Shown here piece after piece: positions 3,003 through 59,830 of a stretch of DNA of 64,000 nucleotides. Numbering within the stretch: position 1 is the stretch's first letter; every line of letters starts with the position of its first letter. Both the position numbers and the translations under genes were made by a program. The notes under the pieces are model-generated. The model searched no databases and was not told where the DNA came from. It saw only the letters and a program-made list of their open reading frames with translations. This DNA is from Bacillales bacterium (lineage in GTDB: Bacteria; Bacillota; Bacilli; Paenibacillales; CANHCR01): positions 798-64,797 of the forward strand of contig CANHCR010000009.1 of the NCBI GenBank assembly GCA_947459205.1, in the 5' to 3' direction.

Positions 3003-3016
3003 TATGGAACGCCCGT

Positions 3017-23474: not shown

Positions 23475-23486
23475 GGGGCTACGTCC

Positions 23487-34528: not shown

Positions 34529-34637
34529 TTACATAATTGAGGATTTTAAATGAAATTATTGAATTATAACGATGCTGGTAAATTCTGTACGCATCAGGAA
34601 AATACTTTATCTTTCAATTCAAGGTGGTCTGATATCT

Positions 34638-38616: not shown

Positions 38617-38632
38617 AACAGGTGGTGAAGAG

Positions 38633-41600: not shown

Positions 41601-42184
41601 AGTTTTTAACGGCTCTATCCAAGAATATCGGTGATTATTTTGTCGAACTATACAAAGGATACGACATTAAAATTCAAGTGAATAAAACTGAGATTGATAA
41701 TTTGTTAGAAAAAATACAACGTGTCACATCAACCGAGGTTAGTGCTATTGGAAACATTGATGATGGTGTAAAAGATCAACTTTCCGGAGCGGCAATCGGT
41801 GCAGCAATTGGATTGATTTTGGGACCGCTTGGTGCGCTCGTCGGAGGATTCTTAGGAGGTTTGTTTTTTTCGAAATCAATTGAAGAAATTCAATATGAAG
41901 TGAACCAGGCCTTTTATAACGTGGCTAACGATACGCATATGAAATCTAATCAAATGGTAGAGAATGAAATAAGTCTTCAGAACGATCAAACCATTATGGC
42001 GAAAATCGATGAGGTTTGTGAATCGATTATGACGAAATACATTCAAGCAGTAGATCGTGTGCGTGGTTCATACCGTAACGAGATTAATGAATCTTTGGAA
42101 CGAATTATTCAAACTAAACATCATATCACCGATATTGCTAATAAGAATGTTCTCCTTGAAACTTGGCGCTCGTCGCGAAGGTAG
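38633..42184 (+). CDS. large dynamin-like GTPase 3 with about 560-aa N-terminal extension
   Basis: Central G1 GETSAGKTS, G3 IDTPGFNA, G4 LNKMD. C-proximal paddle LSGAAIGAAIGLILGPLGALVGGFLGGLFF. RBS AGGTGG. Confidence 0.85.
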   Translation: MSNIGKQLVEKVLKGNPLQNETFHFLKDSQIFCQVNNFQEEHSGYFFISNQRLGYVLNDGECFYYFPYSTVYRYESQYTDETEQYVYISILTIHDNQWKWTRFHVLVDDKVFSSIQFVLDYKYFYPAETSKGDIKKIASLINESRFQDAIDVLNELGQNDPLCGIYHALRFQVNSIQGKSEFAQFNLIQMFDTLSILDPEPLIYAIDSLEWDSRIIQWMNQYQENTLEFRIKEYMMAKSRKNPVEIFHAMNQMFAQLEGEYSDFGDILSLKSSLLINYFVGWSHLLDENMVKRTHQLIVDTEKKYIQSNDFAHLSDAEANMVVRRGATLNSYPQSGLFECVRTMYSTINGYPQISEMFNHHQFVSLANHSFDLVSLYDVDQSDTCSFLYNELPAKEKSRLINNIYCLFALLRTEGITEKTKQVFNSMRTKEGIDINIVLSKPQLILETSIYFFSCIEYFILTSQKKLANEYILHYRFKYGEALGSNIHHILKFGKDILDVYEAWANSDIPLLMSAKNFEVFLEIDWLPSLYIKYIQPMIEKHLKRLNENPQQSMHVVRNSILEITSGFQSLAQSNELLQAKKTKINEYVNQIKNRLHSDELRIAVIGETSAGKTSLLNRMFATDLFYVTQEEATGVPTEIRNGIEADAQVLDRHGNVVIRLNDTQKFELNQMIKRTVSNSNDTSLNSQLHAFIKQHTKVDEERSVNVDRVVVTLPIHDLPKNVVIIDTPGFNANQKRSDIALNVINQAHVCIFIIDARNALKSKEMNILRTVREQTGKLFLVLNKMDLIMGDDELDCDDGDSIKQTLDRVNGDLVRFFDSDKFQVCPVTCMPADRVPAEIVEYVNNLSSLKTRVIEHATTNELELITDMAVKESVDLIEEVQTIMYQTNTQKINKTYESIDKLPMDPHIHASFLYEQINDWLFSLEQSYKSKMYAFNLAKIQDAIDTFAAWVSNQTSSDHLTTGAQAKAESILTIAVNEINRNRKQELNKFLTALSKNIGDYFVELYKGYDIKIQVNKTEIDNLLEKIQRVTSTEVSAIGNIDDGVKDQLSGAAIGAAIGLILGPLGALVGGFLGGLFFSKSIEEIQYEVNQAFYNVANDTHMKSNQMVENEISLQNDQTIMAKIDEVCESIMTKYIQAVDRVRGSYRNEINESLERIIQTKHHITDIANKNVLLETWRSSRR

Positions 42185-42305: not shown

Positions 42306-43943
42306 ATGAAAAAAATGAAGATTATCTTTGTTGTTTTGGTTGTATCTTTGGCATTTAATTTGCTGCCAACAATTTCATGGTCTCAAAGCCCGATTCAAAT
42401 TTATATCAATGGGGTAAAAAAGATTTATGAACAACCGCCTATTGTTCAATATAGCACCACTTTAGTTCCAATGAGAGGCATTTTTGAATCGCTTGGCGCC
42501 AAAGTGGTTTTTAATTCAAGCACTAGACAAATCACAGGTGTAACACCAACTGTTGAAGTGAAATTAACAATAGGTCAGAAAATTGCATCTGTTAATCAAA
42601 ATGGAAAGATTAAAAAATTATTGCTTGGTGTTCCCGCTCAATCATTAAAGGGAAATACGATGGTTCCTTTGAGGTTTATTAGTGAAGTACTCGGAAGCAA
42701 TGTTTCATGGAATCCGCAACAGAGAATTATTAATATTAACCAAGCGAAACCCAAATTACTGTTTAGTGTATCTAAAAAAACTTTGTTGATTGGCGAGACG
42801 ATTCAGTCAAATGTTACACTGCTTAATTTCTCTAAGAAATCACCTTTCGTACAGTATTTCAGCAATCGACCAGATATTTTACATGTTGATGATTTTGGAA
42901 GAATGACTGGTAAATCACTTGGGGTCGCAACGATAACAGCAACGACAGAGAATGTAGAATCTTCAATTAAGGTTGAAGTTACGAATATCATCTGGATCAA
43001 TGATGAAATTGTTCATTCTGCAAGTTCCGGAAACTACGGAAGTGTAGGTGTTTCGTACAATAAAAATCAATTCATGGTTAGAAACTCAATTTATGATTTG
43101 AACTCCGGTAAATTTTTAAAAAAGTTTGCTAATGATACTCAATTTTATAAAAGTGGAATCGTGGAATATAAGTCTGAATGGAATGCGTCGCCCAAAATAA
43201 ATTTTTACAGCGATTCTTTTAAAGCGGAAGGTCAAGCAGAAAGTGCGCTTTTCCCATCAACTATCATTGGTTCTCCATTCACTTCGGTTTTCGGAGATAA
43301 ACTGTTTTATATGGGAGGACAAAAAAAATATTATTTATATGATACATCTTTTCACGAAATTCTTACTTCATACCATTCAACTGAAGAAACCGGAGATTAT
43401 TTTTTCACTTCCAACGTAGCGAGTAATTATGACGAAAGTATCGTGGCAATAGATTCTACAGAAGGAAAGATTCACCTATACGATATGAAAAATGGACAAT
43501 TCATTAATAAATTAAATGCATATAATTATGCTGAGTCAACGAATGATTATAGTTTCGCGTTTAATCCCGGAGATTATCATTTTGGTTTACTTATCGATGA
43601 TCGTGCAAATGGTGTATTAAGTATAATAAATCCTTTGAATCAATCTCTAGAACACAGAATATCGTTCGTGAACAAAAAAATTCGAAGTTTTGCTTTTAGT
43701 CCTAGTGGTAAATTTGTTGTTGTAGGTGACAATAAAGGCACAATCACAATATTTAATTTGTCGGATTATTCGGTAGAAAAAACTTTGAGTACCAAACTTA
43801 ACATTTCAAAAAATAAATTGAACGAGGGAGCAAGTTCTGTTGAAAAGTTATCTTTTGCCAAAGGGGATAAAAAGATACTCGCTTTCTATTCGAGTAACTA
43901 TGACCCAAATGTGATTTGTTGGGATACCAACTTACCGAATTGA
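42306..43943 (+). CDS. secreted protein: stalk (copper amine oxidase N-like), Big_2-like Ig and beta-propeller/WD40-like regions
   Basis: Signal peptide MKKMKIIFVVLVVSLAF. Stalk-type LVPMRGIFESLGAKV and MVPLRFISEVLGSNVSW. Big_2-like GVATITATTENVESSIKVEV. C-terminal FAFSPSGKFVVVGDNKGTITIFNL. Confidence 0.8.
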   Translation: MKKMKIIFVVLVVSLAFNLLPTISWSQSPIQIYINGVKKIYEQPPIVQYSTTLVPMRGIFESLGAKVVFNSSTRQITGVTPTVEVKLTIGQKIASVNQNGKIKKLLLGVPAQSLKGNTMVPLRFISEVLGSNVSWNPQQRIININQAKPKLLFSVSKKTLLIGETIQSNVTLLNFSKKSPFVQYFSNRPDILHVDDFGRMTGKSLGVATITATTENVESSIKVEVTNIIWINDEIVHSASSGNYGSVGVSYNKNQFMVRNSIYDLNSGKFLKKFANDTQFYKSGIVEYKSEWNASPKINFYSDSFKAEGQAESALFPSTIIGSPFTSVFGDKLFYMGGQKKYYLYDTSFHEILTSYHSTEETGDYFFTSNVASNYDESIVAIDSTEGKIHLYDMKNGQFINKLNAYNYAESTNDYSFAFNPGDYHFGLLIDDRANGVLSIINPLNQSLEHRISFVNKKIRSFAFSPSGKFVVVGDNKGTITIFNLSDYSVEKTLSTKLNISKNKLNEGASSVEKLSFAKGDKKILAFYSSNYDPNVICWDTNLPN

Positions 43944-44187
43944 GAGAGAATCGATTACACATGCGTTCACAAACCTCGTCATGAATAAGTTGGCTGTGGA
44001 GAATCGTGACTAAGATGAATTGATATGGCGGATTCAGTCTGACCTATTGGGGAAAGACTTCCGTTTGGAGTGTTTTTCCTTTCAAGTAGCACTTTGTCAT
44101 ATTCGCAGGAAATTGAAGGAGATTCTAGAAAATTAGCGAATTAAATCATAAAGCAATTGAAAAATGATAATTTTAAGGAGCACAGAC

Positions 44188-46665
44188 ATGACTTCGACCG
44201 AAATTCATTACCAATGGATTGCTTTTTATATGGAATTGGCCAATAAACTTCTTCAATATAAGCAGAATCGAAGCGAACTTCTTCAACTTTTGGACAAGGC
44301 ATACCAGGAATCATTCGCAGAAACTGGTCTAAACAATCCGTTGAGGAAGAATCAAGAGGACTTGGAAGATGTGTGTCCATTCACATTTTTTGCGTGTTTC
44401 AATCGCGGCATCAAAGATGAAAATCGCACCGCACTATTGCGAGAACTGGGGAGATTGTTTCAAATATCGGCAGAAGCCCCTACATTATTTGACGGGATTC
44501 CCCTAGCTGACAACCGGAGCATGTGGTTTTTTGCCGGCAAAAGAAAGCGTAATCCCGATGACATTCAAAAATTGTGGGATATGTTTGAGGTCGCAATTCA
44601 CTATGCAGAGCAATCGAGGGATCAACATGTGGAAGAACGTTTTGTTGATTTGTTCGACCGTGTTTTAACGCAACATCAGGTGAAATGGAATTTGACAATG
44701 GGTCTATATTGGATTCGACCAAACTTCTATTTAAATTTGGAAGAAACGAACCGCAAATTCCTAACAGAATTGAGAGAATTTCAACAATCGGAAATTGGTG
44801 GTCAAACAAAATTTGCGGATATGCCGGACGGAACTACTTACTTGAAATTGTTAGCATGGTTCGAATTGTATTTTCAACAATCCGATGCGAATGAACAAGA
44901 TAAAGCCGGCAACTTTTTTGAATTGTCGCGAAATGCTTATGAAACTGCAAAATTAGCGAAATCTGATCGGATAAGATATATGGTTCCTGTTGTCACTGCA
45001 TTACGAGAGTTGGGCGGCTCAGCTAAACCTGATCAAGTCCGAAAGGAATTGATCCGTAATTTGCAACTAAGTAACGACGTGTTAAATGAGCTTCGCGGAG
45101 AGAATAAAGTATCTAAATTTGAACACGAAGTTGCGTTTGCCAGAGAGGCATTGGTATTTGCTGAAATGATCGAAAAAGGCAATCACGGAACTTGGAAATT
45201 GACTGAGAAAGGTCTTGCGCTTCAGTTTACAAATCGGATTGCAATTCAAATGTATGCAAAATATGAAAAAAATACAAAAACGAAAAAAGAACACGTTCCT
45301 AACACTGGCGCTCAACAGTATTGGATCATCGCTCCCGGTCAAAACGCCGAATATTGGGGGGACTTTCAGGACTCCGAAATTATCGGTATCGGATGGTTTG
45401 AAGTGGGGGATTTACAGCAATATGCCAATAAGAATGAAGTTACGGATGTGATGAAGAAACATTATGGCGAGGACAAAGATTATAGAAACGACTCGCTTGC
45501 AATTTGGGAATTCGTCAATCAGGTGAAACCGGGAGATATCATCTATGCCAAGAAAGGTACGCGATTGATAGTCGGTCGCGGTATCGTTCAGGACGATTAC
45601 GAGTTTGAAGTTAGCGATCGGGTGATTCCCCATAGACGAAAAATCGTGTGGACACACACAGGGGAATGGAATTATCCGTTTGATAAAGATATTCCGAGAA
45701 AGACTTTAACGAGAATAAAAAATCAAGCGTCGTGCGCTGCTTTGGAAAGTCTGTTTGGTGAAACTCAAGTGAAACCGCCTGCTACGGATGCCGCTTTTTC
45801 CGAGCAGGACTTTTTGACGCAAGTGTTTATGGGATCAAAAGATTTGACTCATTTGATAGGTATTTTAAAAAATAAGCGGAATTTGATCTTGCTGGGTCCG
45901 CCCGGAGTAGGGAAGACATATGTCGCTGAACTGTTGGCGTATGCGTATATGAATGTGATAGATAAAAAACGCATAACATTCGTTCAATTTCATCAAAGTT
46001 ACAGTTACGAGGATTTCATGTTGGGCTATCGTCCAAACCTTGACGGATTTGAAATGGGGTATGGCCCGTTTTATAAAGCGTGTAAAGAGGCCGAAAAAGA
46101 TCCCAGTCAATCGTACTTCTTCATCATGGATGAAATTAATCGTGGCAATATCAGCAAAATTTTCGGCGAGTTATTGATGCTGATTGAGGCTGACAAGCGC
46201 GGTAAGAAGATTCAATTGCTGTATGGAGATGAGTCATTTTATGTTCCTGATAATCTTTATTTGATCGGCATGATGAATACTGCAGACCGAAGTTTGGCAT
46301 TGATTGATTATGCTCTCCGTCGTCGATTTTCGTTTTTCGAATTGGAACCTGCATTTGAGAAATCGGGATTTAAAGAAATCTCGAAAACGGCGAACAATGT
46401 GAAATTTGATTTGCTTGTAGAAAAAGTGAAGCAATTAAATCGACATATTCGTGAAGACCAATCACTGGGAAGCGGTTTTTGCATCGGTCATAGTTATTTC
46501 TGTGTGACAGATTCTGTCGATGAAATGTGGCTGGAGCGAGTCATCAAATATGAGATTTTGCCATTGGTACAAGAGTATTGGTTCGATGACAAAAAGAGCT
46601 ATGACCATTGGCACAAGGAACTTATGCAGATCTTGGATGGACGGGAAAGCGAGCAATTGCAATGA
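44188..46665 (+). CDS. mcrB: McrB-family AAA+ GTPase with N-terminal winged-helix and EVE-like reader regions
   Basis: LLGPPGVGKTY, FVQFHQSYSYEDF, FFIMDEINRGNISKIFGEL and IGMMNTADRSLALIDYALRRRF are McrB signatures. Upstream QQYWIIAPGQNAEYW..PGDIIYAKKG is EVE/PUA-like. ATG 44188 follows TAAGGAG. Confidence 0.9.
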   Translation: MTSTEIHYQWIAFYMELANKLLQYKQNRSELLQLLDKAYQESFAETGLNNPLRKNQEDLEDVCPFTFFACFNRGIKDENRTALLRELGRLFQISAEAPTLFDGIPLADNRSMWFFAGKRKRNPDDIQKLWDMFEVAIHYAEQSRDQHVEERFVDLFDRVLTQHQVKWNLTMGLYWIRPNFYLNLEETNRKFLTELREFQQSEIGGQTKFADMPDGTTYLKLLAWFELYFQQSDANEQDKAGNFFELSRNAYETAKLAKSDRIRYMVPVVTALRELGGSAKPDQVRKELIRNLQLSNDVLNELRGENKVSKFEHEVAFAREALVFAEMIEKGNHGTWKLTEKGLALQFTNRIAIQMYAKYEKNTKTKKEHVPNTGAQQYWIIAPGQNAEYWGDFQDSEIIGIGWFEVGDLQQYANKNEVTDVMKKHYGEDKDYRNDSLAIWEFVNQVKPGDIIYAKKGTRLIVGRGIVQDDYEFEVSDRVIPHRRKIVWTHTGEWNYPFDKDIPRKTLTRIKNQASCAALESLFGETQVKPPATDAAFSEQDFLTQVFMGSKDLTHLIGILKNKRNLILLGPPGVGKTYVAELLAYAYMNVIDKKRITFVQFHQSYSYEDFMLGYRPNLDGFEMGYGPFYKACKEAEKDPSQSYFFIMDEINRGNISKIFGELLMLIEADKRGKKIQLLYGDESFYVPDNLYLIGMMNTADRSLALIDYALRRRFSFFELEPAFEKSGFKEISKTANNVKFDLLVEKVKQLNRHIREDQSLGSGFCIGHSYFCVTDSVDEMWLERVIKYEILPLVQEYWFDDKKSYDHWHKELMQILDGRESEQLQ

Positions 46666-47723
46666 GCAGCATCCGAATCCGCAACATCTATCACATGCTT
46701 TCTTATGCATACAAATCACTGCGACAGACCTCGTATCAGAATTTGGCAAACGAGCCATTTGAACATGTGGCTGACCTGTTCGCTGCGATTTTGGCGATGG
46801 GTATGGCTGATCAGGTTCGCCGTGGCATCACAAAAGATTATCGTGAGCACACCGAGTCTTTGCCGATGATACGGGGCAAAATAGAATGGGGTACGACTTT
46901 GAACAGCAGATCGGTGCTGACCAAGAAATTGGTTTGCCGATATGACGTTTATGACGAAAATATATACTTGAATCAGATTCTTTATACGACAGCACATGTA
47001 TTACTTCGCAATCAAGAGGTATGTGAAGAGCGGAAGCGAAAACTGAAAAAAACGATGATGTTTTTCGCAGGTTGTGACTTGCTCGATCATTCCTCAATTC
47101 AGTGGAATCGAATTCAGTACCATCGGAACAATGTCGTGTATAAGATGTTGATCAACGTCTGCTATCTGGTGCTGCACGGATTATTGTTGCGGCAAGAGAG
47201 CGGGGCGTATCGGCTCGCAAACTTTATAGATGACCAAAAACGATATCAACTCTTCCAACGGTTTGTTCTTTGCTACTATCAGCATCATTACCCGCACTAT
47301 CATCCTCGCGCCCAAGTGATTAAGTGGCAACTGGATGACTCGTTCATCGATTTTTTGCCCAATATGGTAAGTGATGTACTGATGGAGTATGGTGGACGAA
47401 CGGTGATATTGGATACCAAATATTATAGGAAAATTATGAGCAAACGGTATTACTCAAATCCGGGCGCCGAGAACGATGAAGACAAAGTCAAAGTGAACTC
47501 GGCAAACTTGTATCAGATGTTTTCTTATGTGAAGAACTATGCCGCACATTCAGTTAATCAAGTATCGGGCTTATTGTTATATGCCAATACGAATGAACAG
47601 ATTACGCCGGATGTAGAGTACAGGATGGGTGGCAATGTGATACGCATCAAAACTGTCGATTTAGATCAGGAATTTTCATTGATTGAAACACAGTTGCATG
47701 ATATTTTGAAAGAGTTGATTTGA
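46662..47723 (+). CDS. mcrC: McrC nuclease subunit
   Basis: ATG 46662 overlaps the mcrB TGA (ATGA). N-terminal IRNIYHMLSYAY and the PD-(D/E)xK-type VILDTKYY motif fit McrC. Confidence 0.8.
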   Translation: MSSIRIRNIYHMLSYAYKSLRQTSYQNLANEPFEHVADLFAAILAMGMADQVRRGITKDYREHTESLPMIRGKIEWGTTLNSRSVLTKKLVCRYDVYDENIYLNQILYTTAHVLLRNQEVCEERKRKLKKTMMFFAGCDLLDHSSIQWNRIQYHRNNVVYKMLINVCYLVLHGLLLRQESGAYRLANFIDDQKRYQLFQRFVLCYYQHHYPHYHPRAQVIKWQLDDSFIDFLPNMVSDVLMEYGGRTVILDTKYYRKIMSKRYYSNPGAENDEDKVKVNSANLYQMFSYVKNYAAHSVNQVSGLLLYANTNEQITPDVEYRMGGNVIRIKTVDLDQEFSLIETQLHDILKELI

Positions 47724-47751: not shown

Positions 47752-48213
47752 ATGAATCGAAAAGGTATTCCGTATGGCATGACGATTGCGATGTTTATGA
47801 ATGCATTTTCCATCACCAGTTTCTTCGTGATTGGATTCTTGCTCGTTTGGAAATCCGAGTTGCCAAGTGATTTTTGGGGCTGGTTGCAAATAGGACTATC
47901 CTCCATAATCTATTTAATAGGTGGAGCAGCCTTTATTGTTGTTATCTTCTTGGCTTCGATTGTTGTGTTTTTTCGCGACAGTTATCTTAAGTACATTGGT
48001 GTTCCGATTCTGGTGACATTAGCATACTCAGGAATTATGTTTTTTTTGCCATTCAAAATTCCTGGACCCATCGATGAAGCGATTGTATTCGGGATATCGC
48101 AATGGATTCGTGTTGCGGCACTCAAATCTCAGGAAAGTGATGAGAAAGAATTAGAGGAACTCCGAAGATACAAGGAAATAAAGGAACAAGAAAACCAAAA
48201 AGAATTAAATTGA
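47752..48213 (+). CDS. hypothetical 4-TM membrane protein with acidic coiled tail
   Basis: ATG 47752 lies 8 nt after GAAGGAG. Four hydrophobic helices, then ESDEKELEELRRYKEIKEQENQKE. Confidence 0.6.
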   Translation: MNRKGIPYGMTIAMFMNAFSITSFFVIGFLLVWKSELPSDFWGWLQIGLSSIIYLIGGAAFIVVIFLASIVVFFRDSYLKYIGVPILVTLAYSGIMFFLPFKIPGPIDEAIVFGISQWIRVAALKSQESDEKELEELRRYKEIKEQENQKELN

Positions 48214-48353
48214 TTTGATTTAGACCACTTAGATTTGAGAAAAGACGAAAACGGTGAGCATGTATATCGTTAGTAACGTAATGGTTAGTTCACATGGCGT
48301 TTGTTTTTGATGAAAGCTACTTTGAATTTTTGTATTTACGGAGGTGTGTTATA

Positions 48354-49838
48354 GTGGGAATGCCGATGAATGCGCATCTGATGCTGAGTTTATTAGGTGA
48401 GACCGAATTGGAGCAGTCAGTAATTGCAAAAGTCCATGGAATGCTGAAATCATTCGATTTATTTGCATTTGTCTTGCATGACAAAATTGAGCATCGACAG
48501 TTTGATTTGAAGTTCGAAGAAATTTATCATGATTTGCATCGTGAGACTAATAAGCATGTATTATTCTTTTCGTTTGTAAATCCTAAAGTTGGATGGGACG
48601 ATTATTTAAAAAATACCGCTTATTTTTCTGAACTTTTATCAACAGATTTTTATAAATTTTTATCTGTTATGGAGACATATTTTTCGCATGACTCCGTTTG
48701 TTCAGTGAACCAAATCGCGCGAGCACTTCGCATTGATTCGGAACAGCTTCCTGTCATTATCCTAACACAAGATTTCAGTTTACAAAGTTTTAAGGTTATC
48801 GAAACGAACGAGAATATTTTTGTTTCTCAATTTAAAGCGATAGAGAAAGCAGTCAAGGATTTTGAAGTCGAGCGCCACCATTACTCGAATGAACAGGGGC
48901 AAGAGCGACTATTTAAGGACATTGATAAATATCTTGCATTGCTTAAATCAGATTCGCTCGACTACAACTCAGAAGTTGTTGGATTTTCCGTCGCAAATGC
49001 TCTTCAACCATTATTCCGCATCATTCGCATGATATGGGATTGTCCATTCGAACAACTTTCTCACGTTGACAAACAAAAAATTATTGAGATTTTTGAGTCG
49101 ATGCGCATTGATTTAGAGCGAATGAAGGTTTTGTTTCTAAAATCGGAAGAGGAGAATATTATCAACGAGTACGAACAAATGTGTAAACAGTTGTCGGATT
49201 GTTTGGCACTTGTAGATAAGCCTGTTCAGCAAATTGTGCCTGAAGAGTTCGCTGATGTGAGCCGATTTATGGAGCGTAACTCTCATGAATGGTTCATCAG
49301 CGGGTTACGCATTTCTAAATATTTAGAAACGGGAATCAACCGAAATACGAATAAGAATACGATTGATTATTCTCCGGCGGCCATTTGCATCGGAAAATCG
49401 TTTGAGAATGAAATAAATTTATCGATTTATCAATGGTTACGGAAAATTGCTGGTGTTAATTTGCCTGATTACTATGATAAGCCTCAACCGAATTTGGGAG
49501 TAGAAGAGACGCAGTTTCAGTTACCATACGGCAACACTTATCAAATTAATGTTAATAGGTCAAGCAAAAATAATCAGAAATTAATTTACCCAGGTCTAGG
49601 AACTATCTATCATTTCGTGAAAGATGATTATTGTCCTGATCAATTTACAGAAAACGATTGGCGCTCATTTCTTCAGGAGTGGGAAACAATTTTTCGTGTT
49701 CGAAATCAAGCAGCCCACACAAAAACTGTGAATAAGTCTGAATTTAACAAACTCGTTCGATCCTTTGAAAGAATTATTGTCCCGAGACTTTACTCCCAGA
49801 TTGTCGCTATGAAAAAAACGTTGCGCGGAGAAACATAA
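48354..49838 (+). CDS. hypothetical protein with C-terminal HEPN-type RNxxAH motif
   Basis: GTG 48354 lies 9 nt after GGAGG (track start 48294). The C-terminus WETIFRVRNQAAHTKTV matches the Rx4-6H (RN..AH) HEPN signature seen in Abi_2-like proteins. Confidence 0.6.
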   Translation: MGMPMNAHLMLSLLGETELEQSVIAKVHGMLKSFDLFAFVLHDKIEHRQFDLKFEEIYHDLHRETNKHVLFFSFVNPKVGWDDYLKNTAYFSELLSTDFYKFLSVMETYFSHDSVCSVNQIARALRIDSEQLPVIILTQDFSLQSFKVIETNENIFVSQFKAIEKAVKDFEVERHHYSNEQGQERLFKDIDKYLALLKSDSLDYNSEVVGFSVANALQPLFRIIRMIWDCPFEQLSHVDKQKIIEIFESMRIDLERMKVLFLKSEEENIINEYEQMCKQLSDCLALVDKPVQQIVPEEFADVSRFMERNSHEWFISGLRISKYLETGINRNTNKNTIDYSPAAICIGKSFENEINLSIYQWLRKIAGVNLPDYYDKPQPNLGVEETQFQLPYGNTYQINVNRSSKNNQKLIYPGLGTIYHFVKDDYCPDQFTENDWRSFLQEWETIFRVRNQAAHTKTVNKSEFNKLVRSFERIIVPRLYSQIVAMKKTLRGET

Positions 49839-50039
49839 AGAGATTTGGATTGACTGTTCTTGCGACCCGTTGAAACATCAAGAAAAAATGTGACGCATGT
49901 CATCAAATTGGAGAAGTGTATGTTAGGGCATTCAATTTTTTCTGGTTTTTACTTTTAAAAATAAGTAGTTTCAAATTAAAAGATTTATAAAAAATTGAGT
50001 GTGGAATTCCTTTGAGATTATGAATTTGGAGGAGATTAA

Positions 50040-50999
50040 TTGAAAATTAATACTGATTGGAAACTGAAAGTTTTGCTGACGTTCGGTATTATATTGACTG
50101 TGCTCATAATAGCGGTTCCACTTATTTTTTCAATAATTTCATACGACCCTTATAATACATTGAGGAACGCTGATGCACCTTCTTATTTGGATTATTTAAT
50201 GTTTGTTGGTTCGATAATTGCTGGTTTAGTGGGTCTATTAGGGGTGTTCTCTACGTTATATGTGAGTTACAAACTTTATAAAGTATCCGAAAAAGCTGTT
50301 GAAATTGCAGACCAGGCAACTAATATAGCAGACGACACTCGTAATGCTCAAGTATCGGACAATAAACTCAACTTAGTTAGAGAATATATAACGATGATTA
50401 GAGAACTCGAATCTACAGACAGTCAAATTACAGAAGCTCGTGCATTTCAAGATAAATTGAGTGGAATTATTAACCGTCGATACGAGCACATCTACAGGCA
50501 GGTCAATTCCTTTTTTAACCATGTCATTGATCAGGTTGAAAAGGGGAGTAAATTTCATCATTCAACGACTATTAGAACCAACAAATTTCCAGATGATTTG
50601 TTTGACACTTTTTTAAATAATTCCTTATTGGATAGAAATCAAATTCGACTAATAAATTATTTTTTTCAATTTGAATGGATAAATCCTGCAATACGAACTA
50701 ATCCAGTAATTGATATTGTGAGAATTTCTTCAGAGCACCACCAAATCGAATTTGTAATTAGTTTTTCTAACTTATCAGTTTCCTTCACAGAGAATGAAGT
50801 GAGAAAGGATGTTATTCAAATCAATGAATTTTATGAAAATGACATAATGAGAGATAAAATTGAATTTGTAATGGATTCAATTTCGAATAGAATAAAAAAC
50901 ATAGAGCGAATAAAAGAATTTTACGTAGAAAACTGCAAGGAGCTTCAGAAAATTACTGGTTATAAATTGATTGAATTTACACAAGATGAAAAGGCATAA
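50040..50999 (+). CDS. hypothetical membrane protein (2 N-terminal TM helices, cytoplasmic alpha/beta region)
   Basis: TTG start after GGAGGAG. 319 aa. No motif recognised. Confidence 0.6.
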   Translation: MKINTDWKLKVLLTFGIILTVLIIAVPLIFSIISYDPYNTLRNADAPSYLDYLMFVGSIIAGLVGLLGVFSTLYVSYKLYKVSEKAVEIADQATNIADDTRNAQVSDNKLNLVREYITMIRELESTDSQITEARAFQDKLSGIINRRYEHIYRQVNSFFNHVIDQVEKGSKFHHSTTIRTNKFPDDLFDTFLNNSLLDRNQIRLINYFFQFEWINPAIRTNPVIDIVRISSEHHQIEFVISFSNLSVSFTENEVRKDVIQINEFYENDIMRDKIEFVMDSISNRIKNIERIKEFYVENCKELQKITGYKLIEFTQDEKA

Positions 51000-51388
51000 A
51001 CACAAATGTATTTTATACAATCTCTGCGGAATGGGATTCTGCAAGCATTCAAAATTGTTAGGAAATCAAATTCATGGGAACATGAGATCATATCATTCGA
51101 TTGGAGAAGTGTATGTCAGGACATCAAAGATAGCAGCTTTATCGTCGGGATGTTGTCGAGCATGTCTTGAGAAGGGTGAAGAACCCTACAGCATCTGTTG
51201 GCTCGCTCAACTGAGTTGAGTAATCACTCGTTTTTTTGCCAGTGGGCATTGAGGGCATTTTGTATCAAATTCTCTAAACTGCTGATGTCCGACATCAAGT
51301 GATTTTAGGGGAATTCACGAGTGCATGAAATCAAGCATCCAATCAAGACGGTATGTTATTAATGGCACCAATTAAGGTGTATTAAATT

Positions 51389-51579
51389 GGAGAAACGGTT
51401 GTTTCTGATTATATACAGCGTGTCAAAATTACAATTGATGATATTATCCATTTTCGCAGTAGCTGATTCATAGTAAAAAATGGCATTATCATGAGTATAA
51501 CCATGTGGAAAGATTTTTGAAAATCTGCCGCATGGTTTTTCTTTTTTTGGCAGGAAAACCATCAAATATGTAGAATTTA
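51389..51579 (+). promoter_or_regulatory. leader-like module, copy 2, directly upstream of the 51619 operon
   Basis: Homologous to 32596-32785. Contains mini-ORF 51491..51520 (MSITMWKDF) overlapping the 5' arm of a terminator. It ends about 40 nt before the RBS GGAGGG of the 51619 gene. Confidence 0.7.
51499..51548 (+). terminator. intrinsic terminator/attenuator inside leader module copy 2
   Basis: Stem aaccatgtgg (51499-51508) / ccgcatggtt (51528-51537, one G-U), inner stem agatttt/aaaatct, then tttttcttttttt. The stem is conserved with copy 1 while the loops differ. Confidence 0.7.
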
Positions 51580-51618
51580 TAAAATAGAATTCTAAATAAT
51601 CGGAGGGTTTGATTTCAT

Positions 51619-52653
51619 ATGTTAAATAAACTACTAGAAAACAAAGAATTAATCAATTATTTAGAAAGTGCAGCATGTCGATTGAAAGTAATCGAATTCG
51701 ACGAAAGTTTTAAGTCAATTTCAGAGGCGGAATTAAATCATTTATTGCAGTTTTTACACCGTTTTTGTCACGAAAGACAGTGGGTGTATGCGATTCGAGA
51801 TGCATCAAAGACGCCGGAGAATGCGATTTCACACTATGTCGATCGTTTAATCGAGCAGTCGAAATCTAGGGATGCAGAAGACAAAATTTTTAAACGATTG
51901 GTTGTTATTACGAATATACCTGACGAGCCTTCAGAAGCACTTGTATCGGCTTTAGATCGTCTATTGGAATCTAGTGATGATATGTATTTGATCGTTTCTT
52001 TCGGCAGATCGATCTATAAGCAAGTCTATAAGATGAGTAAATTCAGGATGTTCCTAGATAAATTGCTTTTGATTTCGAATGCAACAAAAAATACGGAAAT
52101 CAGGAGTGTTGCGTCATCAAACATATTGATAACAAATGTACCGACAACAAACGTGGCATTTCCGCGATATCGTCCGTCAGATGATTTGAAAGCATTTCTG
52201 TACGCAAATTTCCCGCTGATTCATAATGCGAATTTTGACTTGTCTGAAATCAATCATGAGTCAACGATAGTGAAAGCAAAATTAACGGATCACCTTAATC
52301 ATCATCACACAGCGTTCGGTGGCAGCATTGCTCTTAGTTTGTTATTGTCGGCGATGTGCCATTTGGTCAAGATTGTCGATACGTTCCCTGAAGAGTTGTC
52401 ATTTGTTATCGGCAAACAGGAAGTCACATATTACGAAAAAATAAACGAAGACTTTGTTGTTAGAAGTCTTGAGGTTTCCGACCAGGAAAAACGCGATTAT
52501 TTTGCACGCGTAATGGAGCGCGGAAGAGGTGCCATTGTGATTAAATCGCAAATTCGCGACGAAGCCACTGATAAACTGCTGGCAGAGTTTATTGGGAAGT
52601 TCGTATGTATCAAGTGTATGGATGTTGAACCTTCCGACTATGCAATAAGCTAA
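51619..52653 (+). CDS. hypothetical protein, C-terminal hotdog-fold (PaaI/4HBT thioesterase-like) region
   Basis: 344 aa, RBS GGAGGG. C-terminal KAKLTDHLNHHHTAFGGSIALSLLLSAMCH..GAIVIKSQIRDEATDKLLAEFIGKFVCI resembles the N..G.(H/F)GG..a.L.D hotdog pattern. The N-terminal half is unknown. Confidence 0.65.
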   Translation: MLNKLLENKELINYLESAACRLKVIEFDESFKSISEAELNHLLQFLHRFCHERQWVYAIRDASKTPENAISHYVDRLIEQSKSRDAEDKIFKRLVVITNIPDEPSEALVSALDRLLESSDDMYLIVSFGRSIYKQVYKMSKFRMFLDKLLLISNATKNTEIRSVASSNILITNVPTTNVAFPRYRPSDDLKAFLYANFPLIHNANFDLSEINHESTIVKAKLTDHLNHHHTAFGGSIALSLLLSAMCHLVKIVDTFPEELSFVIGKQEVTYYEKINEDFVVRSLEVSDQEKRDYFARVMERGRGAIVIKSQIRDEATDKLLAEFIGKFVCIKCMDVEPSDYAIS

Positions 52654-52676
52654 ATTGAATTGAGGAGTGGTAGAAG

Positions 52677-53294
52677 TTGCGCATATGTGATGTACAAGCG
52701 TTAGTTTTGAATGGGACGTTTATTGTTTGTTGGGATGAGACATTGCTGCGAAACAGTCCGCCACGAGGCAGGCTTACTATTGATGCGAATGCCCTTGTGT
52801 TGCGAGCATACATTGACAATGAGTTTGGTTTAAGTTTTAAGTTTGCGTGTTATGCGATGCTCCAAGATGAACAGGTGACATTGTTTGCCGACGACAGCGG
52901 ACTGGGTTCGTTTACCATTCGTATAGACGAATCGACCGACTATTCTTTTATTTGGCTGCCACATGGTGTTTATAATGAGGATACTTTGAATCTCGATCGG
53001 ATGGTTCGCGAATGTTATCAAGTGAATGATTTTGTTCAATATAGTAGAACGATGGACGTTTTGCATCCGTTGCGAGACAGGATTCAGCCGGATGTGATTC
53101 GTGTTCTACTATCTGCTAAAGATGGTGAGATGGAAGGGGTATGGTGTCGAATTCATGACTACATCAATGAACGAATGGTTGTTAAATTGTTGCATGACAC
53201 GAAGAGAGATTTTGGTCTACGGACAAATGCCCTGTTAAATGTGGATATCGTACAACATGAGGGTCAAGCATATGTTGTTTGGGAACAGGAGTGA
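52677..53294 (+). CDS. hypothetical protein (decayed paralogous fragments lie at 32805-33000 and 61294-61490)
   Basis: 205 aa, TTG start after GAGGAGTGG. The segment RLTIDANALVLRAYIDNEFGLSFKFACY parallels RIRID..NSVALGLYVFSKWGLSFNFACY encoded by the repeat copies. Confidence 0.65.
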   Translation: MRICDVQALVLNGTFIVCWDETLLRNSPPRGRLTIDANALVLRAYIDNEFGLSFKFACYAMLQDEQVTLFADDSGLGSFTIRIDESTDYSFIWLPHGVYNEDTLNLDRMVRECYQVNDFVQYSRTMDVLHPLRDRIQPDVIRVLLSAKDGEMEGVWCRIHDYINERMVVKLLHDTKRDFGLRTNALLNVDIVQHEGQAYVVWEQE

Positions 53295-53398
53295 GCAATA
53301 CAATTTCGGATTTCTGCAGTAGCTGCGATGCAGTAGAGTAATAGGCTAATTATTTTATTTTGGTCAAGAGGAACATGTGACGCGAGAGGAGTGTTCTG

Positions 53399-54673
53399 AT
53401 GAAGTTACAGGAGCAGTATCAAAAGTGGTTGAATGAATTTACTGAGGCGCACGGCAGACCGAGCCCGTATGAATCGGTTGCGACATTTGAATCATTTGAG
53501 GCGCGCTTGAAATTTGCTGATTTGTTGCGCATGTTTGACGAAAGTGGTGAGCAGGATTTTGCGAAAATCGAACAAATTTACTTGTCAATTATTCACGATG
53601 CGGTTGCAAGACAATGTGCAGGTGTAACTTTTACACATGCAGAGATGCATTTGTTGGCGCGCTTGTATATCAAATATGGGCAGTTGTACTGGGAGTGCCG
53701 CAAAGATGAGTCGTTTTTGCTCGATATGTTGGATCGCGCGACTACGTTCATCAAACTCGATAAACGCTTGAATGGGCTTGAAGCGACGGTCGAATATTTT
53801 CGTTTGAAGTTGTTGGCGGATCAGGGACAGCAATTGAGAGCGCTACAGGAAGCAAAGTCGCATCTGACGCTCGTCGGGAAAAAGAGGAAGTCGTTGTGGA
53901 ATCGGGAAAAATACATGTTTCATTTGTTTCTATTTGAATTGTATAGCGACAATCAATGTTATGAGGATGCGGAAGAACATTTGCAGGAAGCGTGCCTTGC
54001 TCTGAACTTGTTGAAAAAAGCGAATGTTGATGACTTTATGCCAGTAGAGCTCATGGGCGTCGTGTCACGCTACATTTTTGAAGTAGAAGATCAAGGGATG
54101 ATGTTTGTACCTGGGGAGGATGGTCCGGAGCGCGACCGCAAAGCAAACTATGCAGCGAACGTGAAGATTCAGGTGGAGAATGCGGCTTACTATGGGGAAG
54201 CGCATTTTGATGAGAAGTACCAGCGTGACGAGCAGATTTTGCTATTGAAAGGCTTTTTGCCGAAGAAGGTTGAAGGCAATGAACTAATTGAAGAAGAGTG
54301 TGCGACGATTGTCGCGGGTGCGCTGAAGGCAGGCGCATTGATTGAGACGGAGTTCGGACTCGAAGTCGTGAATCCGATTGCCGGAAATGTGATGGATATC
54401 GCGGCGTTGATTAGCGGACAAGCAGGCCTAAAGCGACGAGAATATTACAAAATGTGGCGCGATAAGGTGGATGGAGCGAGTCTGTACGAGGACCATTATT
54501 ATGTACGAGGTGAAGGTGAGGATGACCACCTCGATGATGGCAATGATTATGAAGGCATGTCGGCTAAGCAGAAAGAATTATTGGAATATAAATGGAGTAA
54601 ACAGTTTAATCGATCGCGGCGCTTAAACCGAAATATTGCGAAGCGATTGCGCGATTTGTTGGAGTGGAATTGA
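53399..54673 (+). CDS. hypothetical alpha-helical protein
   Basis: 424 aa, RBS GAGAGGAG. Predicted helical/TPR-like N-terminal half. No catalytic motif recognised. Confidence 0.65.
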   Translation: MKLQEQYQKWLNEFTEAHGRPSPYESVATFESFEARLKFADLLRMFDESGEQDFAKIEQIYLSIIHDAVARQCAGVTFTHAEMHLLARLYIKYGQLYWECRKDESFLLDMLDRATTFIKLDKRLNGLEATVEYFRLKLLADQGQQLRALQEAKSHLTLVGKKRKSLWNREKYMFHLFLFELYSDNQCYEDAEEHLQEACLALNLLKKANVDDFMPVELMGVVSRYIFEVEDQGMMFVPGEDGPERDRKANYAANVKIQVENAAYYGEAHFDEKYQRDEQILLLKGFLPKKVEGNELIEEECATIVAGALKAGALIETEFGLEVVNPIAGNVMDIAALISGQAGLKRREYYKMWRDKVDGASLYEDHYYVRGEGEDDHLDDGNDYEGMSAKQKELLEYKWSKQFNRSRRLNRNIAKRLRDLLEWN

Positions 54674-54817
54674 GGTTTCTTTAGAATCAACACGATAAAG
54701 CTAGTGCCTCGTGCCGGTGCGCTTCTACTCATCAAGCGAATGTTTTTCTTTTTTCTAAAATAAAGGAATTAACGCTGTTTTTATTGAATTTATATAACGA
54801 CTAATGGGGGTGAGCAT

Positions 54818-55672
54818 TTGTTGATTGATCAGCTACGCCAAAGTTTTCAAACCAATGGAGCAACTCACCCGCAAACGATGTGCTTCGTTACTCAGTACAT
54901 CTCGCGCATCATGAATGTCGCGCCGAAACAAAAAGACTTTCGTAACCATAATAAATTTCACGACGCGCAATTGATTGCAGATGACCGTCAATTATGTCTG
55001 ATGGTGATTGAAGCCTATATTTGCGATCCGAAATACATTCGAATTTATGAAAATCTCGACCAATATGACGACGAACAGTGGATTCACATGAAACCAAGTG
55101 AGCAGGATCCACACGGAACATTTTATGTGGAGGAGTTACGTGGATGGATTTGGGACTTTGGTCCAGATGATCCGCATGATACAGAAGACATTTTATCCGA
55201 TAATGAAGATTTGGAGGAGTGGATGGACTTTGACACCCTCGTCCACCAACGCATTTCTTACGTTTTGCTGAAACTTACGTTTCATGCGTTTATGGGAAGC
55301 GCAGAACAACCTGCGTTTTTCGAAATGTTGTGGCGAATTATTGCGCGCGCGTTTCAAAAACAAACCGTCTTTGGAGAAGGTACGTGGTCTCTCGAGGGCA
55401 TTATGGAGGAACTTGTTCATTACAAAGCGTTCACATTTATGAGCAATGTGTTATTGCATTTTCGCACAAATAAACTTTTCCCCTACAACTCTTGGATGCG
55501 TTTTGCTGGCATGTTGATACGTGGACAATTTGAAGCATTATCCAAGATGGGCTATCACTCCAAAATTAGTGCGAATGTATTGATCAGAAATGAACTCGAG
55601 CGTGTGGCAAACGAAGAAAACTGGCCGGCGTTGAAGAAGAAATATTTGCTAGCACGAGTTGGTCTGCTGTAG
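54818..55672 (+). CDS. hypothetical protein
   Basis: 284 aa, TTG start after GGGGGTGAG. No motif recognised. Confidence 0.6.
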   Translation: MLIDQLRQSFQTNGATHPQTMCFVTQYISRIMNVAPKQKDFRNHNKFHDAQLIADDRQLCLMVIEAYICDPKYIRIYENLDQYDDEQWIHMKPSEQDPHGTFYVEELRGWIWDFGPDDPHDTEDILSDNEDLEEWMDFDTLVHQRISYVLLKLTFHAFMGSAEQPAFFEMLWRIIARAFQKQTVFGEGTWSLEGIMEELVHYKAFTFMSNVLLHFRTNKLFPYNSWMRFAGMLIRGQFEALSKMGYHSKISANVLIRNELERVANEENWPALKKKYLLARVGLL

Positions 55673-55701
55673 CTGCAATCACGAAAAGGAGTCACACGTC
55701 A

Positions 55702-58137
55702 ATGATGATTCGCATCGATCTAGAGCGAGCTCGCACGGCACGCACGATTGTCGCGCGTTTGCAGCTAGCCATGAAAGAGCACTGGCAAGTCGCCTTTCCT
55801 TTATATGAAGATGCGGAACGGGCACGCCTGCTTTGTTTGCAAAACGGCGGCGGAAACCGTAATTTCACTCACCCGCGTTTGCTCCAGATGTGGCGAGATC
55901 TTCAAAAGGAATCGCAAATGAACGTCACGATTACGTTTTTCGACCTCAATCGGCATTATGCAAAGTTGGTGGAGGCCGCGTTTCGTGCTGATCTAGCAGA
56001 TTTTTTTGCCACGTGTACAGCAGATGAGCGAACTGCGCTTCCTGTTCTGAATGTGTTCAATTACATTTGTCCTAAACATTGGCAGTTGCAAATCGATGGC
56101 GTCCAGTGGGGCTCCGTTTATGCTCGGACCGAGGTGCCTGAGCTGCCGGTGGATGCTTTATTTGCGTGCAATCGTGAAGCGACGATGGAACCGGTGTGGG
56201 CAGATCAGGCGATTGCATGGTTGGAGTATCGTCTGCATCACTGCAACCAGTTGTCTGAAGTTTCGAAAGTCATCAAGTCTACGTTTAGCAAAATCAAGAA
56301 GCGCCTCTATTTGACGTATCAATTGACGGAACTTTATGAGGCGTATCGCGTCATCCTTGACGCTTTGCCAAAGCTTGCACGCGCCGAACGATTGCTGAAG
56401 ATGTATCGCCTCGAATTCGCACAGCTACTCGCCATCCATTTTGAGGAAGAGTGTGCGCAACCGTTAGCAAATTTCAATCAATCCATCGAGACGAATATTT
56501 TAGACATTCAAGTTCTGACTGCGCTACATGAAGAAATTGCGTTTGATGGCTTTGCTTGGCTTGGACGTTGGCGACAAGAAACGCGCACTTCTTCTGTCAT
56601 CCACCAACGAAAATGCAAGTGGTTCGATCAATGCAACGAATTGTTTCAAGCACATGATGGTCAATACAAGCCTTGGATGCGCGAAATCTTCTGTAAATTA
56701 GCGATTGAGTTCCATGCGCGTATGCAACATCGACAAATGGAGCAACTTTTCGAATGGAACAAATCGGTGCGCTATTGGAACGTAATGGACCGCTTAATTG
56801 TGTTTTATGACTGGCATGAACTCGTGACGAGAGATACAAGTTATCTATTCGATGTGGCGGAACGAATGACTTTCATCGGTCGTTTCGAACGTGTCGTGCG
56901 CAACTATTTCCGCCATTTGCGAGAGGATGATATAAGTGAGCAAGATATGGTAGAGCGGTTCCAAAATCAATATATCGTGCCGCGACAGTTCATGCGTTAT
57001 GATACTTGGATTCGCGAAGTCGATAAGCTAATTGGCAACGAGCGTTGGATGAGTCGCTTTTCCGAAGCAACGCAATTGGATTTGCGTTTTGCGGTGCTGA
57101 AGTCACACACTCTATTGTCGTTTTTTCAAACACCACTCGACGAACGTTTTGCAGAATTACAGCAACAAATTGAGCAACGTTACGGAAGAATGGATCGACG
57201 TTGGATTGAATTGATGACAGATATTTATCCGAAGATCGCTGATCGGCTGAAAAGAGCCGATCAATACGGTCTCTTAATATTGAATTCGATTGAAGAGGAT
57301 AATCACGACAATTTGGGTGATCGACTACAAGTTATCGCAACGTTGTTGGAGCGAAAAACTATTTTGCTGAATCAGTCAACAATCCTCAGTTTGGCTCACG
57401 AATATGTAGAAATTGTGGCATTAACGAAAAAGAAAGATTTGACTGGATTATGCAAATTAATCTGGTCGCGCGGCGCCCGAACATTGTACTTTTATTTAAT
57501 GCAACGGCAACTCGAAACATATGCAGCAATGGATAACAAAAATGTTTTGGATGCTATGCGTTTTTATGGAAACTGCATCTTATTAAATGAGGATATTTTC
57601 AGAACCGCAACTCTTTTTACAAAAGCTTCAGATTATTCTTTTGCTTGTTTCCGCATGGTAGAGCAAATTGTAATCCAAAAAGCTACATTTGATATGAGTC
57701 ACTTATCTTTTTTAGCAAAGTTGTTGGTGATGTGTTCACAGTCGAACGATTCACGGACTCCGTCCATTATGCAAAACTTATATGAGTATGTGTTGAACGG
57801 CATCGAAGAGGTACAAAAACAAGATAAATCTTTATCAGAGAAATGGAGAAATCGTTTTTTTAAAATACTCCGCAATAAAGATTGGCACATTTGGGTGGAA
57901 AAACATGGGGGTGAGCAAATGTGGTGGGATTGGTTGGAGTTTTCTTGGTCAGAAACGAAAAATTGGTATTTGAAGACCTTGAAAGATGTGATGATCGTCT
58001 CACGGTTGAACACGCTCAAAAAATTCGAAACACGTTTTTCCTTGGACGCAGGTCGACTTGCCGCTGTCGCCGAGATGCGAGCAAGATGTTATGATCTGCT
58101 CGGTCCGCATCATCCGAAGGTGAAAGGTGGGATGTGA
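55702..58137 (+). CDS. large hypothetical alpha-helical protein (811 aa)
   Basis: RBS AAAGGAG. Trp/Arg-rich and helical. Its size and position upstream of MoxR/vWA recall the large uncharacterised partners (YehM/DUF4132-like) of other MoxR-vWA loci, but no homology could be verified. Confidence 0.7.
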   Translation: MMIRIDLERARTARTIVARLQLAMKEHWQVAFPLYEDAERARLLCLQNGGGNRNFTHPRLLQMWRDLQKESQMNVTITFFDLNRHYAKLVEAAFRADLADFFATCTADERTALPVLNVFNYICPKHWQLQIDGVQWGSVYARTEVPELPVDALFACNREATMEPVWADQAIAWLEYRLHHCNQLSEVSKVIKSTFSKIKKRLYLTYQLTELYEAYRVILDALPKLARAERLLKMYRLEFAQLLAIHFEEECAQPLANFNQSIETNILDIQVLTALHEEIAFDGFAWLGRWRQETRTSSVIHQRKCKWFDQCNELFQAHDGQYKPWMREIFCKLAIEFHARMQHRQMEQLFEWNKSVRYWNVMDRLIVFYDWHELVTRDTSYLFDVAERMTFIGRFERVVRNYFRHLREDDISEQDMVERFQNQYIVPRQFMRYDTWIREVDKLIGNERWMSRFSEATQLDLRFAVLKSHTLLSFFQTPLDERFAELQQQIEQRYGRMDRRWIELMTDIYPKIADRLKRADQYGLLILNSIEEDNHDNLGDRLQVIATLLERKTILLNQSTILSLAHEYVEIVALTKKKDLTGLCKLIWSRGARTLYFYLMQRQLETYAAMDNKNVLDAMRFYGNCILLNEDIFRTATLFTKASDYSFACFRMVEQIVIQKATFDMSHLSFLAKLLVMCSQSNDSRTPSIMQNLYEYVLNGIEEVQKQDKSLSEKWRNRFFKILRNKDWHIWVEKHGGEQMWWDWLEFSWSETKNWYLKTLKDVMIVSRLNTLKKFETRFSLDAGRLAAVAEMRARCYDLLGPHHPKVKGGM

Positions 58138-59827: not shown

Positions 59828-59830
59828 GCG

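Follow-up and report, generated by a model that had tools for sequence, protein, structure and literature searches.

HEPN domains are four-helix bundles in which a polar residue (N, D or H) directly follows the Arg of an Rx4-6H motif (PMC3710099). PrrC, one of the described HEPN effectors, is encoded within type Ic hsd genes and backs up EcoprrI, and a 'multi-pronged' strategy combining restriction–modification (R-M) with HEPN proteins has been described for at least 16 HEPN clades (PMC3710099). Here we describe a gene, referred to as X, that lies downstream of the McrBC restriction genes in a 64,000-nt stretch of a Bacillales metagenome contig (CANHCR010000009.1; this whole stretch is called the window below). 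According to its open reading frame (ORF), a family alignment and a structural model, X (48354–49838, plus strand) encodes a protein of 494 aa with three domains: thioredoxin-like, helical and HEPN-like. We propose, with a probability of roughly 55%, that X is a stand-alone immune effector of an undescribed family, in which a thioredoxin-fold domain devoid of CxxC and a helical domain are joined to a HEPN-type RNase that backs up restriction. Literature searches turned up no account of a protein joining a thioredoxin-like domain to HEPN, nor of a HEPN gene within DISARM.

The closest described systems resemble X in part. Like PrrC and RloC, X carries an Rx4H motif in its C-terminal domain, its gene resides in or beside a restriction operon, and the protein is predicted to act as a second-line, suicidal RNase. 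In contrast, PrrC and RloC possess an N-terminal ABC-ATPase, whereas X has a thioredoxin-like and a helical domain with no P-loop or ABC matches, and sequence similarity of X to either protein is not detectable. X also resembles AbiD/AbiF (Abi_2), AbiU2, AbiV and ApeA in being a solo defense-island gene whose product has a C-terminal HEPN-like domain with an RNxxxH motif. However, the matches of X family members to Abi_2, AbiU2, AbiD and ApeA are weak and far below the family thresholds, and the N-termini differ, being β-rich in ApeA, all-helical in Abi_2 and α/β thioredoxin-like in X. A conserved insert of ~65 residues with a β-hairpin inside the HEPN-like domain further sets X apart from the Abi proteins and ApeA.

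The CARF–HEPN proteins Csm6 and Csx1 share with X the order of an N-terminal α/β domain followed by a C-terminal HEPN-like domain with inserts. CARF_HEPN profiles weakly match 6 of 76 X family members, and one member is located between CRISPR arrays. Nevertheless, the N-terminus of X has a thioredoxin-like order of elements whereas CARF is Rossmann-like, most members are not linked to CRISPR, and there is no sign of cyclic-oligoadenylate signaling partners for X. Finally, X is found inside operons that resemble class 1 DISARM (DrmD, DrmMI, DrmA, DrmB, DrmC), their genes matching DrmD, DrmMI, DrmA and DrmB with E values between 1e-61 and 1e-171. In DISARM, DrmC is usually located after DrmB, and it is this post-DrmB position that the X homolog of Brevibacillus fulvus holds. 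Yet X is homologous to no Drm protein, occurs also solo or with unrelated systems, and in the window has no DISARM core adjoining it. X is akin to single-gene HEPN abortive-infection proteins and to PrrC/RloC and is a member of none of these systems, since no profile matches it above threshold, it has no ABC-ATPase domain and its N-terminal fold is different.

X represents a protein family without a model or name

The best start of X is the GTG codon at 48354, with GGAGG 9 nt upstream; both NCBI and Logan also give a product of 494 aa, which begins with VGMPMNAH in agreement with the family N-terminal consensus MGMPI. An alternative gene call starts at 48366 and yields 490 aa. An earlier, sequence-only reading of the locus, which gave the protein 495 aa, was essentially right, and the FRVRNQAAHTK motif it had picked out is indeed present.

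X has no match in Pfam, NCBIfam or PHROGs, and no valid match in PADLOC. A Cas12f hit in PADLOC-DB v2.0 (E 7e-4) falls on the helical middle region and was judged spurious. Searches of PDB sequences with three family profiles (A1, A2 and A4) produced no meaningful match either. Word-indexed homology search recovered a single true relative (P0002, 24% identity), and even with a 76-sequence profile it found only 2–3. On the other hand, when 1.84 billion cluster representatives were searched exhaustively with a HMMER profile, 639 relatives were detected at E ≤ 1e-3, 205 of them at E ≤ 1e-30. Because the relatives are this numerous and are mostly matched end to end (most are 470–510 aa long), X belongs to a real family. 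Every relative named by its source is labeled 'hypothetical protein'; the one from a named species is the Brevibacillus fulvus protein (WP_204519536.1 / A0A938Y209), encoded in a genome assembly deposited at NCBI. When 76 relatives were scanned singly, no Pfam family scored above threshold, and the family is absent from PADLOC v2.0, Pfam (2025) and NCBIfam (2026). The X family is therefore real and so far without a model or a name.

Conservation was derived from an alignment of 76 full-length members, which are ~23% identical to the window protein; residue numbers below refer to the 494-aa X. Invariant columns comprise P133, E351, E353, S357, R363, P371, N401, R450, N451 and H455, while H42, D43 and P44 are near-invariant. 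An AlphaFold2 model based on the family alignment has a mean predicted local distance difference test score (pLDDT) of 86.7 and a predicted template modeling score of 0.87.

In this model, residues ~1–176 (48354–48881, plus strand) form an N-terminal α/β domain, delimited by DSSP and by conserved columns, with the thioredoxin-like element order β-α-β-α-β-β-α. The family motif H-D-P (H42-D43-K in the window protein) follows strand 1, at the site of the thioredoxin CxxC, and the invariant P133 directly precedes strand 3, which is the cis-Pro position. No CxxC redox motif is present at the N-terminus of helix 1, its place being taken by the near-invariant H-D-P, and redox activity is not predicted for this domain. 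The top-probability Foldseek matches of the X model are thioredoxin-fold structures (PDILT b' in PDB, 0.47; BFVD, 0.57), although these matches are weak (E ≥ 1), so the assignment of a thioredoxin fold is tentative. The middle domain (residues ~177–300; 48882–49253, plus strand) is all-helical in the model and poorly conserved in the alignment. It is followed by the HEPN-like domain (residues ~301–494; 49254–49835, plus strand), which was also modeled separately with a pLDDT of 91.2. This domain consists of helices 308–326, 340–365, 433–456, 461–475 and 479–490, and its conserved insert (366–432) contains the β-hairpin. Two segments, both on the plus strand, stand out. RNQAAH (residues 450–455; 49701–49718), with the invariant R450-N451-x3-H455, is the Rx4-6H motif, with which, according to alignment and model, the third core helix ends. 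The segment FENEINLSIYQWLR (49401–49442) lies in the helix bearing the invariant E351, E353, S357 and R363 and is predicted to provide the second half of the active site.

Genomic context and domain fusions of the X family

We compared 27 loci with an X family member, representing ~20 distinct contexts, in addition to the window; a 12-sequence alignment used for locus retrieval contributed 5 genome loci and 15 metagenome loci. Defense links are evident in ~12 of the ~21 distinct contexts, window included. In several of these, X is embedded in a DISARM-like operon. In L029, the order is SNF2, Eco57I methylase, X and DEAD/MZB helicase, with gaps of 24 and 57 bp on either side of X. L031 encodes a 131-aa ORF, SNF2, X and a type IIG methylase (gaps of 10 and 16 bp), and the P0021 locus likewise has a 131-aa ORF, SNF2 and X, X being bordered by a 7-bp gap and a 10-bp overlap. 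In L035, X follows SNF2, PDDEXK_13, DUF932 and RNase_T genes and precedes a 1060-aa ORF. In Brevibacillus fulvus (L033), it comes about 60 bp after a series of N6_Mtase, sigma70-like, DrmA and DrmB genes. The best PADLOC matches of these neighbors are DrmD (E 1e-98 to 1e-167), type IIG/DrmMI, DrmA (E 4e-171) and DrmB (E 1e-60).

Other defense contexts are diverse. X is flanked by SduA_C and HsdR in L032 and is followed by an MmeI-family enzyme in L004. Elsewhere it has the BREX gene BrxL upstream, or an integrase on one side and GmrSD_N with Eco57I on the other, or, as judged by eye, a C5-methyltransferase-like ORF upstream. In L012, X (3223–4683) lies between two CRISPR arrays (1055–2925 and 5088–5709) with a Cas2-like ORF upstream; both arrays share the 37-nt repeat GTGGAAATGACCGCCCCGACTAATAGGGGATTGTCAC, and the first has at least 25 repeats. 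A position within or next to a restriction operon is seen in L032, L029, L031, L035, L004 and L033, and the X of the window is one gene downstream of mcrBC. Viral contigs, phage genomes and plasmids yielded no X family member. When proteins of the window island were compared by tblastn with a set of 27 loci that did not include L033–L035, no shared partner gene emerged, the only similarity being of the generic SNF2 kind. Taken together, X is mostly a lone gene that often lies in or beside restriction systems or other defense genes.

Additional domains are attached to some members. Among the top 150 relatives, 8 are longer than 600 aa. P0062 has a C-terminal leucine-rich repeat (LRR) region of the internalin type (E 5e-53), and the same repeat could be seen by eye in P0030, P0081, P0129 and P0130. 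P0146 has both IPT-like repeats and an FGE-sulfatase domain (E 1e-16), P0030 begins with an FtsZ GTPase domain (E 9e-42), and P0129 and P0130 carry a duplicated N-terminal extension of ~100 aa. We had considered the latter to be a Phd/YefM-type antitoxin domain and dropped the idea, as PDB sequences gave no support. Ligand sensing is a typical function of LRR and FGE-sulfatase domains in the immune proteins of prokaryotes. Their fusion to X, recognized in sequence, fits a view of X as an effector core that accepts attached sensors.

Two features of the SNF2-containing loci may be recorded here. An ORF of 131–134 aa without any family match directly precedes the DrmD-like SNF2 gene in L031 (210–605), L035 (1929–2333) and the P0021 locus (4693–5088), and it may be a conserved part of an SNF2 plus type IIG methylase system. 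In L035, genes for PDDEXK_13/REase-ARP, DUF932 and RNase_T (5239–7805) separate the DrmD-like helicase from X, which makes the region from DrmD to the methylase look like a variable cargo slot.

X as a candidate back-up of restriction

How might X work? Its HEPN domain would be a metal-independent endoribonuclease with an active site in which E351 and E353 join R450, N451 and H455, and the protein would probably be dimeric, in line with other HEPN enzymes. Until an infection cue appears, its N-terminal and middle domains would keep it inactive. Once activated, X could cut cellular or phage RNA, shutting down translation or degrading phage RNA, and phage production would be halted in an abortive-infection or second-line response. 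X would in this way serve as a back-up of restriction systems that rely on modification to distinguish self from non-self (here McrBC), much as PrrC does for the type I enzyme EcoprrI. We infer the RNase activity, dimerization, autoinhibition, trigger and abortive outcome. In a broader and more tentative version, possible rather than probable, the X family would be a widespread, portable second-line module that fires when DISARM, type I, IIG or IIL R-M, BREX or McrBC is bypassed or inhibited, with LRR or FGE-sulfatase sensors swapped in.

Several observations weigh against X as a restriction back-up. The context sample is small and many of its contigs are short. In L005, L008, L027 and L034, X has no obvious defense neighbor. 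In the window itself, a gene for a protein with 3–4 transmembrane (TM) helices separates X from McrBC, and consensus scans found neither a plus-strand terminator nor a clear intergenic promoter among this gene, X and the gene that follows.

A different relationship to restriction would make X a guard or accessory subunit bound to the adjacent restriction complex (DISARM-like, type I or McrBC), kept inactive by this binding and freed when a phage anti-restriction factor disables that complex; in some operons, X may even replace the DrmC nuclease. The tight operonic placement between DrmD and DrmMI, after DrmA–DrmB and between SduA_C and HsdR is what one would expect from such coupling, and the tie of at least 16 HEPN clades to R-M operons, along with the precedent of PrrC, points the same way (PMC3710099). 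However, the systems that X accompanies are of many kinds (DISARM-like, type I, IIG, IIL, BREX, CRISPR and McrBC), so a specific protein–protein interface with all of them is unlikely, and some members have no restriction neighbor at all. In addition, members with LRR or FGE-sulfatase domains of their own suggest self-contained sensing, and the embedded positions may merely reflect insertion hotspots. Thus, while the tight operonic spacing favors coupling, the heterogeneity of partners and the sensor fusions favor autonomy, and we consider a guard or subunit role rather unlikely.

If the prediction of a stand-alone effector holds, the restriction-linked HEPN effectors, a well-known class, gain with X a new family and a new architecture. 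X would add to the HEPN RNases carried as restriction back-up a family of several hundred clusters that now go under 'hypothetical protein', and would represent an additional single-gene defense system. Its regulatory architecture, a thioredoxin-fold domain in which His-Asp replaces CxxC, would be one not described before for HEPN proteins. The insertions among DISARM genes and the LRR and FGE-sulfatase variants offer handles on how such effectors sense infection. X is a good candidate for a new single-gene defense system, but such candidates are numerous, and current understanding is not overturned.

Evidence for a HEPN-type domain

The proposed role depends on whether the C-terminal domain of X is a HEPN domain. 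In established HEPN proteins, the Rx4-6H motif is found where core helix 3 gives way to the loop leading into helix 4, helix 2 has a conserved acidic residue, typically within Ex3[K/R], and a variable insert may occur between helices 2 and 3 (PMC3710099). X has an Rx4-6H motif with a polar residue after the Arg, and R, N and H are invariant in all 76 aligned members; given that these members are only ~23% identical to X, the RNxxxH pattern is no chance match. In the predicted structure, helix 433–456 ends just after H455 and is connected by the loop 457–460 to helix 461–475, so the motif is where it is expected. The acidic residues are there too, as E351 and E353 within helix 340–365, which is followed by an insert of 66 residues. 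The literal Ex3[K/R] spacing was not found: E353 is followed after three residues by S357, and the invariant R363 is farther along the same helix.

Similarity searches point in the same direction at scores below threshold. Among 40 C-terminal domains of X family proteins, 7 have sub-threshold Pfam matches to HEPN_Swt1, and RiboL-PSP, Abi_2, DUF4145 and AbiU2 also appear. In PADLOC, the sub-threshold CARF_HEPN matches (6 of 76 members) reach a best E of 8e-5 and are accompanied by Csx1/Csm6, AbiD and ApeA. When the C-terminal model was compared with PDB using Foldseek, the HEPN structures 2hsb, 5yep_B and 7ae6_A were among the best full-length alignments, with target-normalized template modeling scores of 0.43–0.49 and E values of 0.85–5, which are not significant.

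The other side of the balance is the lack of a significant profile match between the X family and any established HEPN family in Pfam, NCBIfam or PADLOC. The best Pfam E value, 0.0046 for HEPN_Swt1, was obtained for one member only. The Foldseek E values of at least 0.85 and the empty profile searches of PDB sequences likewise count against the assignment. It may then be argued that the C-terminus of X is not a HEPN nuclease, and that RNxxxH sits in an unrelated helical domain, for example one that binds a ligand or nucleic acid, or that the activity resides in the thioredoxin-like His-Asp domain. Besides the lack of a significant HEPN match in both sequence and Foldseek searches and a helix-2 motif that lacks the Ex3[K/R] form, the conserved H42, D43 and P133 at the thioredoxin active-site position of the N-terminal domain would suit such an explanation. 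It is nonetheless hard to reconcile with the joint invariance of the Arg, the polar residue after it and the His, with the invariant glutamates in the adjacent helix, or with a motif at the expected place on the expected helix. Moreover, the sub-threshold matches scatter over many HEPN families rather than over random families. We therefore view a non-HEPN C-terminus as improbable. The motif, the helix layout and the weak HEPN matches together back the HEPN-type motif that the sequence-only reading had recognized, even though proof by significant homology was not obtained; the C-terminal domain of X, as seen in sequence and model, is probably HEPN.

The flanking membrane-protein genes

The region 47752–50999 of the window contains three plus-strand genes 3' of mcrC, of which X is the middle one. 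Gene 1 (47752–48213, plus strand; 153 aa) starts 28 bp past mcrC behind an AAGGAG ribosome-binding site and, according to ORF and hydropathy analysis, encodes a protein of 3–4 TM helices and a charged C-terminal tail. Its hydrophobic segments are 9–33, 44–80 (long enough for two helices) and 81–104, and its tail contains both acidic and basic residues, the acidic ones being slightly more numerous (10 D/E vs 7 K/R). Gene 3 (50040–50999, plus strand; 319 aa) encodes a protein of 2 TM helices (hydrophobic segments 6–38 and 49–77) and a soluble domain of ~240 aa; it is plausible, by the positive-inside rule, that this domain is cytoplasmic.

Scans with Pfam, NCBIfam, PADLOC and PHROGs left both membrane proteins without a match. 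In tblastn comparisons with the 27 other X-bearing loci, the best E value for either was only 0.8, and neither was matched in plasmid and phage collections; for the 3–4-TM protein, the negative result covers these loci and collections. The search for the product of gene 3 extended to 5.8 billion clusters, among which no homolog beyond this same genome was found. A '4 TM domain' gene in the legend of a CoCoNuT superoperon figure (PMC11090510) was also considered and provided no usable link.

The sequence-only reading had interpreted the HEPN protein and its two membrane neighbors as a possible abortive-infection trio that it could not assign to a named system. Much of its description stands: the three ORFs downstream of mcrC are all present, hydropathy bears out the two segments and large soluble domain of gene 3, and the membrane proteins match no PADLOC-DB v2.0 component. 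Gene 1 does encode a membrane protein, with 3–4 rather than firmly 4 TM helices, and 'acidic' describes its tail only roughly. The trio itself is not supported, as neither membrane protein recurs in the 27 loci, and the co-occurrence of the three genes in other genomes that such a module would imply was not found.

A single module in which the 3–4-TM and 2-TM proteins assist or control the HEPN RNase would be in keeping with the adjacency of the three genes on one strand, the lack of a detectable plus-strand terminator between them, and the fact that all three proteins are unannotated. Cases of HEPN enzymes paired with membrane proteins occur elsewhere. Co-transcription of the three genes in this genome may take place, as they are all on one strand with no plus-strand terminator or clear intergenic promoter found, and possible co-expression, or even a possible lineage-specific functional link, with the membrane proteins is a point to be set against the autonomy of X. 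Nevertheless, the trio is highly improbable, being largely refuted already by missing co-conservation: the 27 other X-bearing loci are without either membrane protein, the 2-TM protein has no homolog beyond this genome, X is solitary in most genomes, the gaps flanking X (140 and 201 bp) contrast with 7–57 bp for its true operon partners elsewhere, and GC content at third codon positions (GC3) differs among the three genes (0.40, 0.36 and 0.28). Along the neighborhood, GC3 runs from 0.51 in mcrC through these values, with the minimum in gene 3, to 0.39 thereafter, and such steps suggest a mosaic of separately acquired cassettes. The flanking membrane genes are best described as lineage-specific neighbors in a mosaic defense island; as subunits of X they are not supported. 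The annotation of the locus is corrected accordingly, the relevant unit being one gene and not three.

Downstream of gene 3, a stretch of 619 bp (51000–51618) without a convincing ORF or an Rfam match extends to a YiiD_C-like gene and includes a plus-strand promoter-like site at 51547–51576. The Rfam scan of the entire window likewise found no RNA family.

The surrounding defense island

The window comes from a metagenome scaffold of 227 kb (ENA ERZ28613002). Upstream of X, domain matches identify McrB and McrC (44164–47723, plus strand), a type IV restriction system; McrB has AAA_5 (GTPase) and Mrr_N domains, and McrC matches PF10117 (E 4e-30). The N-terminal region of McrB (44164–46665) is unusually long. 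DUF8425, Mrr_N and DUF8426 are given for it in the precomputed annotation, and McrB residues 385–498 match the PADLOC candidate PDC-S02. This domain content suggests that the McrB N-terminus is a composite reader of modified DNA preceding the AAA_5 GTPase.

McrBC and X are part of an island of nearly 50 kb (12704–61081) that consists almost entirely of plus-strand defense genes and begins just downstream of sbcD (4522–5700) and sbcC (5697–8789). The first part of the island comprises Mrr_cat (minus strand), an SNF2 helicase (14535–17822), RNase_T-BRCT (18633–19562) and AAA_21 with RloB (19659–21525). Type III mod/res (21534–25943), EVE-HNH (26592–27722) and a 1508-aa SF1 helicase with an MTES_1575 nuclease (27873–32399) follow. 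Three dynamin-like GTPases (34572–42184) precede McrBC, and a pair of MoxR AAA_3 and DUF2201 VWA genes (58757–61081) closes the island. The third dynamin-like GTPase matches LeoA/LeoBC of PADLOC, while for the other two the scan covered Pfam. The whole looks like a single 'superoperon'. GC content is 0.51–0.58 in the sbcCD region (1–9000) vs 0.32–0.45 across the island (13000–58000), a drop consistent with horizontal acquisition.

The RNase_T gene of the island comes shortly after the SNF2 helicase, just as RNase_T comes after the DrmD-like helicase in L035. Between the 2-TM gene and the MoxR/VWA pair are seven consecutive plus-strand ORFs (51619–58744; 344, 205, 424, 284, 811, 205 aa and others), and the only one with a family match is the first, which has a YiiD_C thioesterase-like domain. 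Together with the MoxR–VWA genes, they could constitute an uncharacterized multi-gene system. Two secreted-looking proteins (42306–43943 and 447–2306) have a copper amine oxidase N-terminal (Cu_amine_oxidN1) domain; one of them, encoded mid-island between the dynamin-like genes and McrBC, additionally contains Big_2 and a WD40 propeller.

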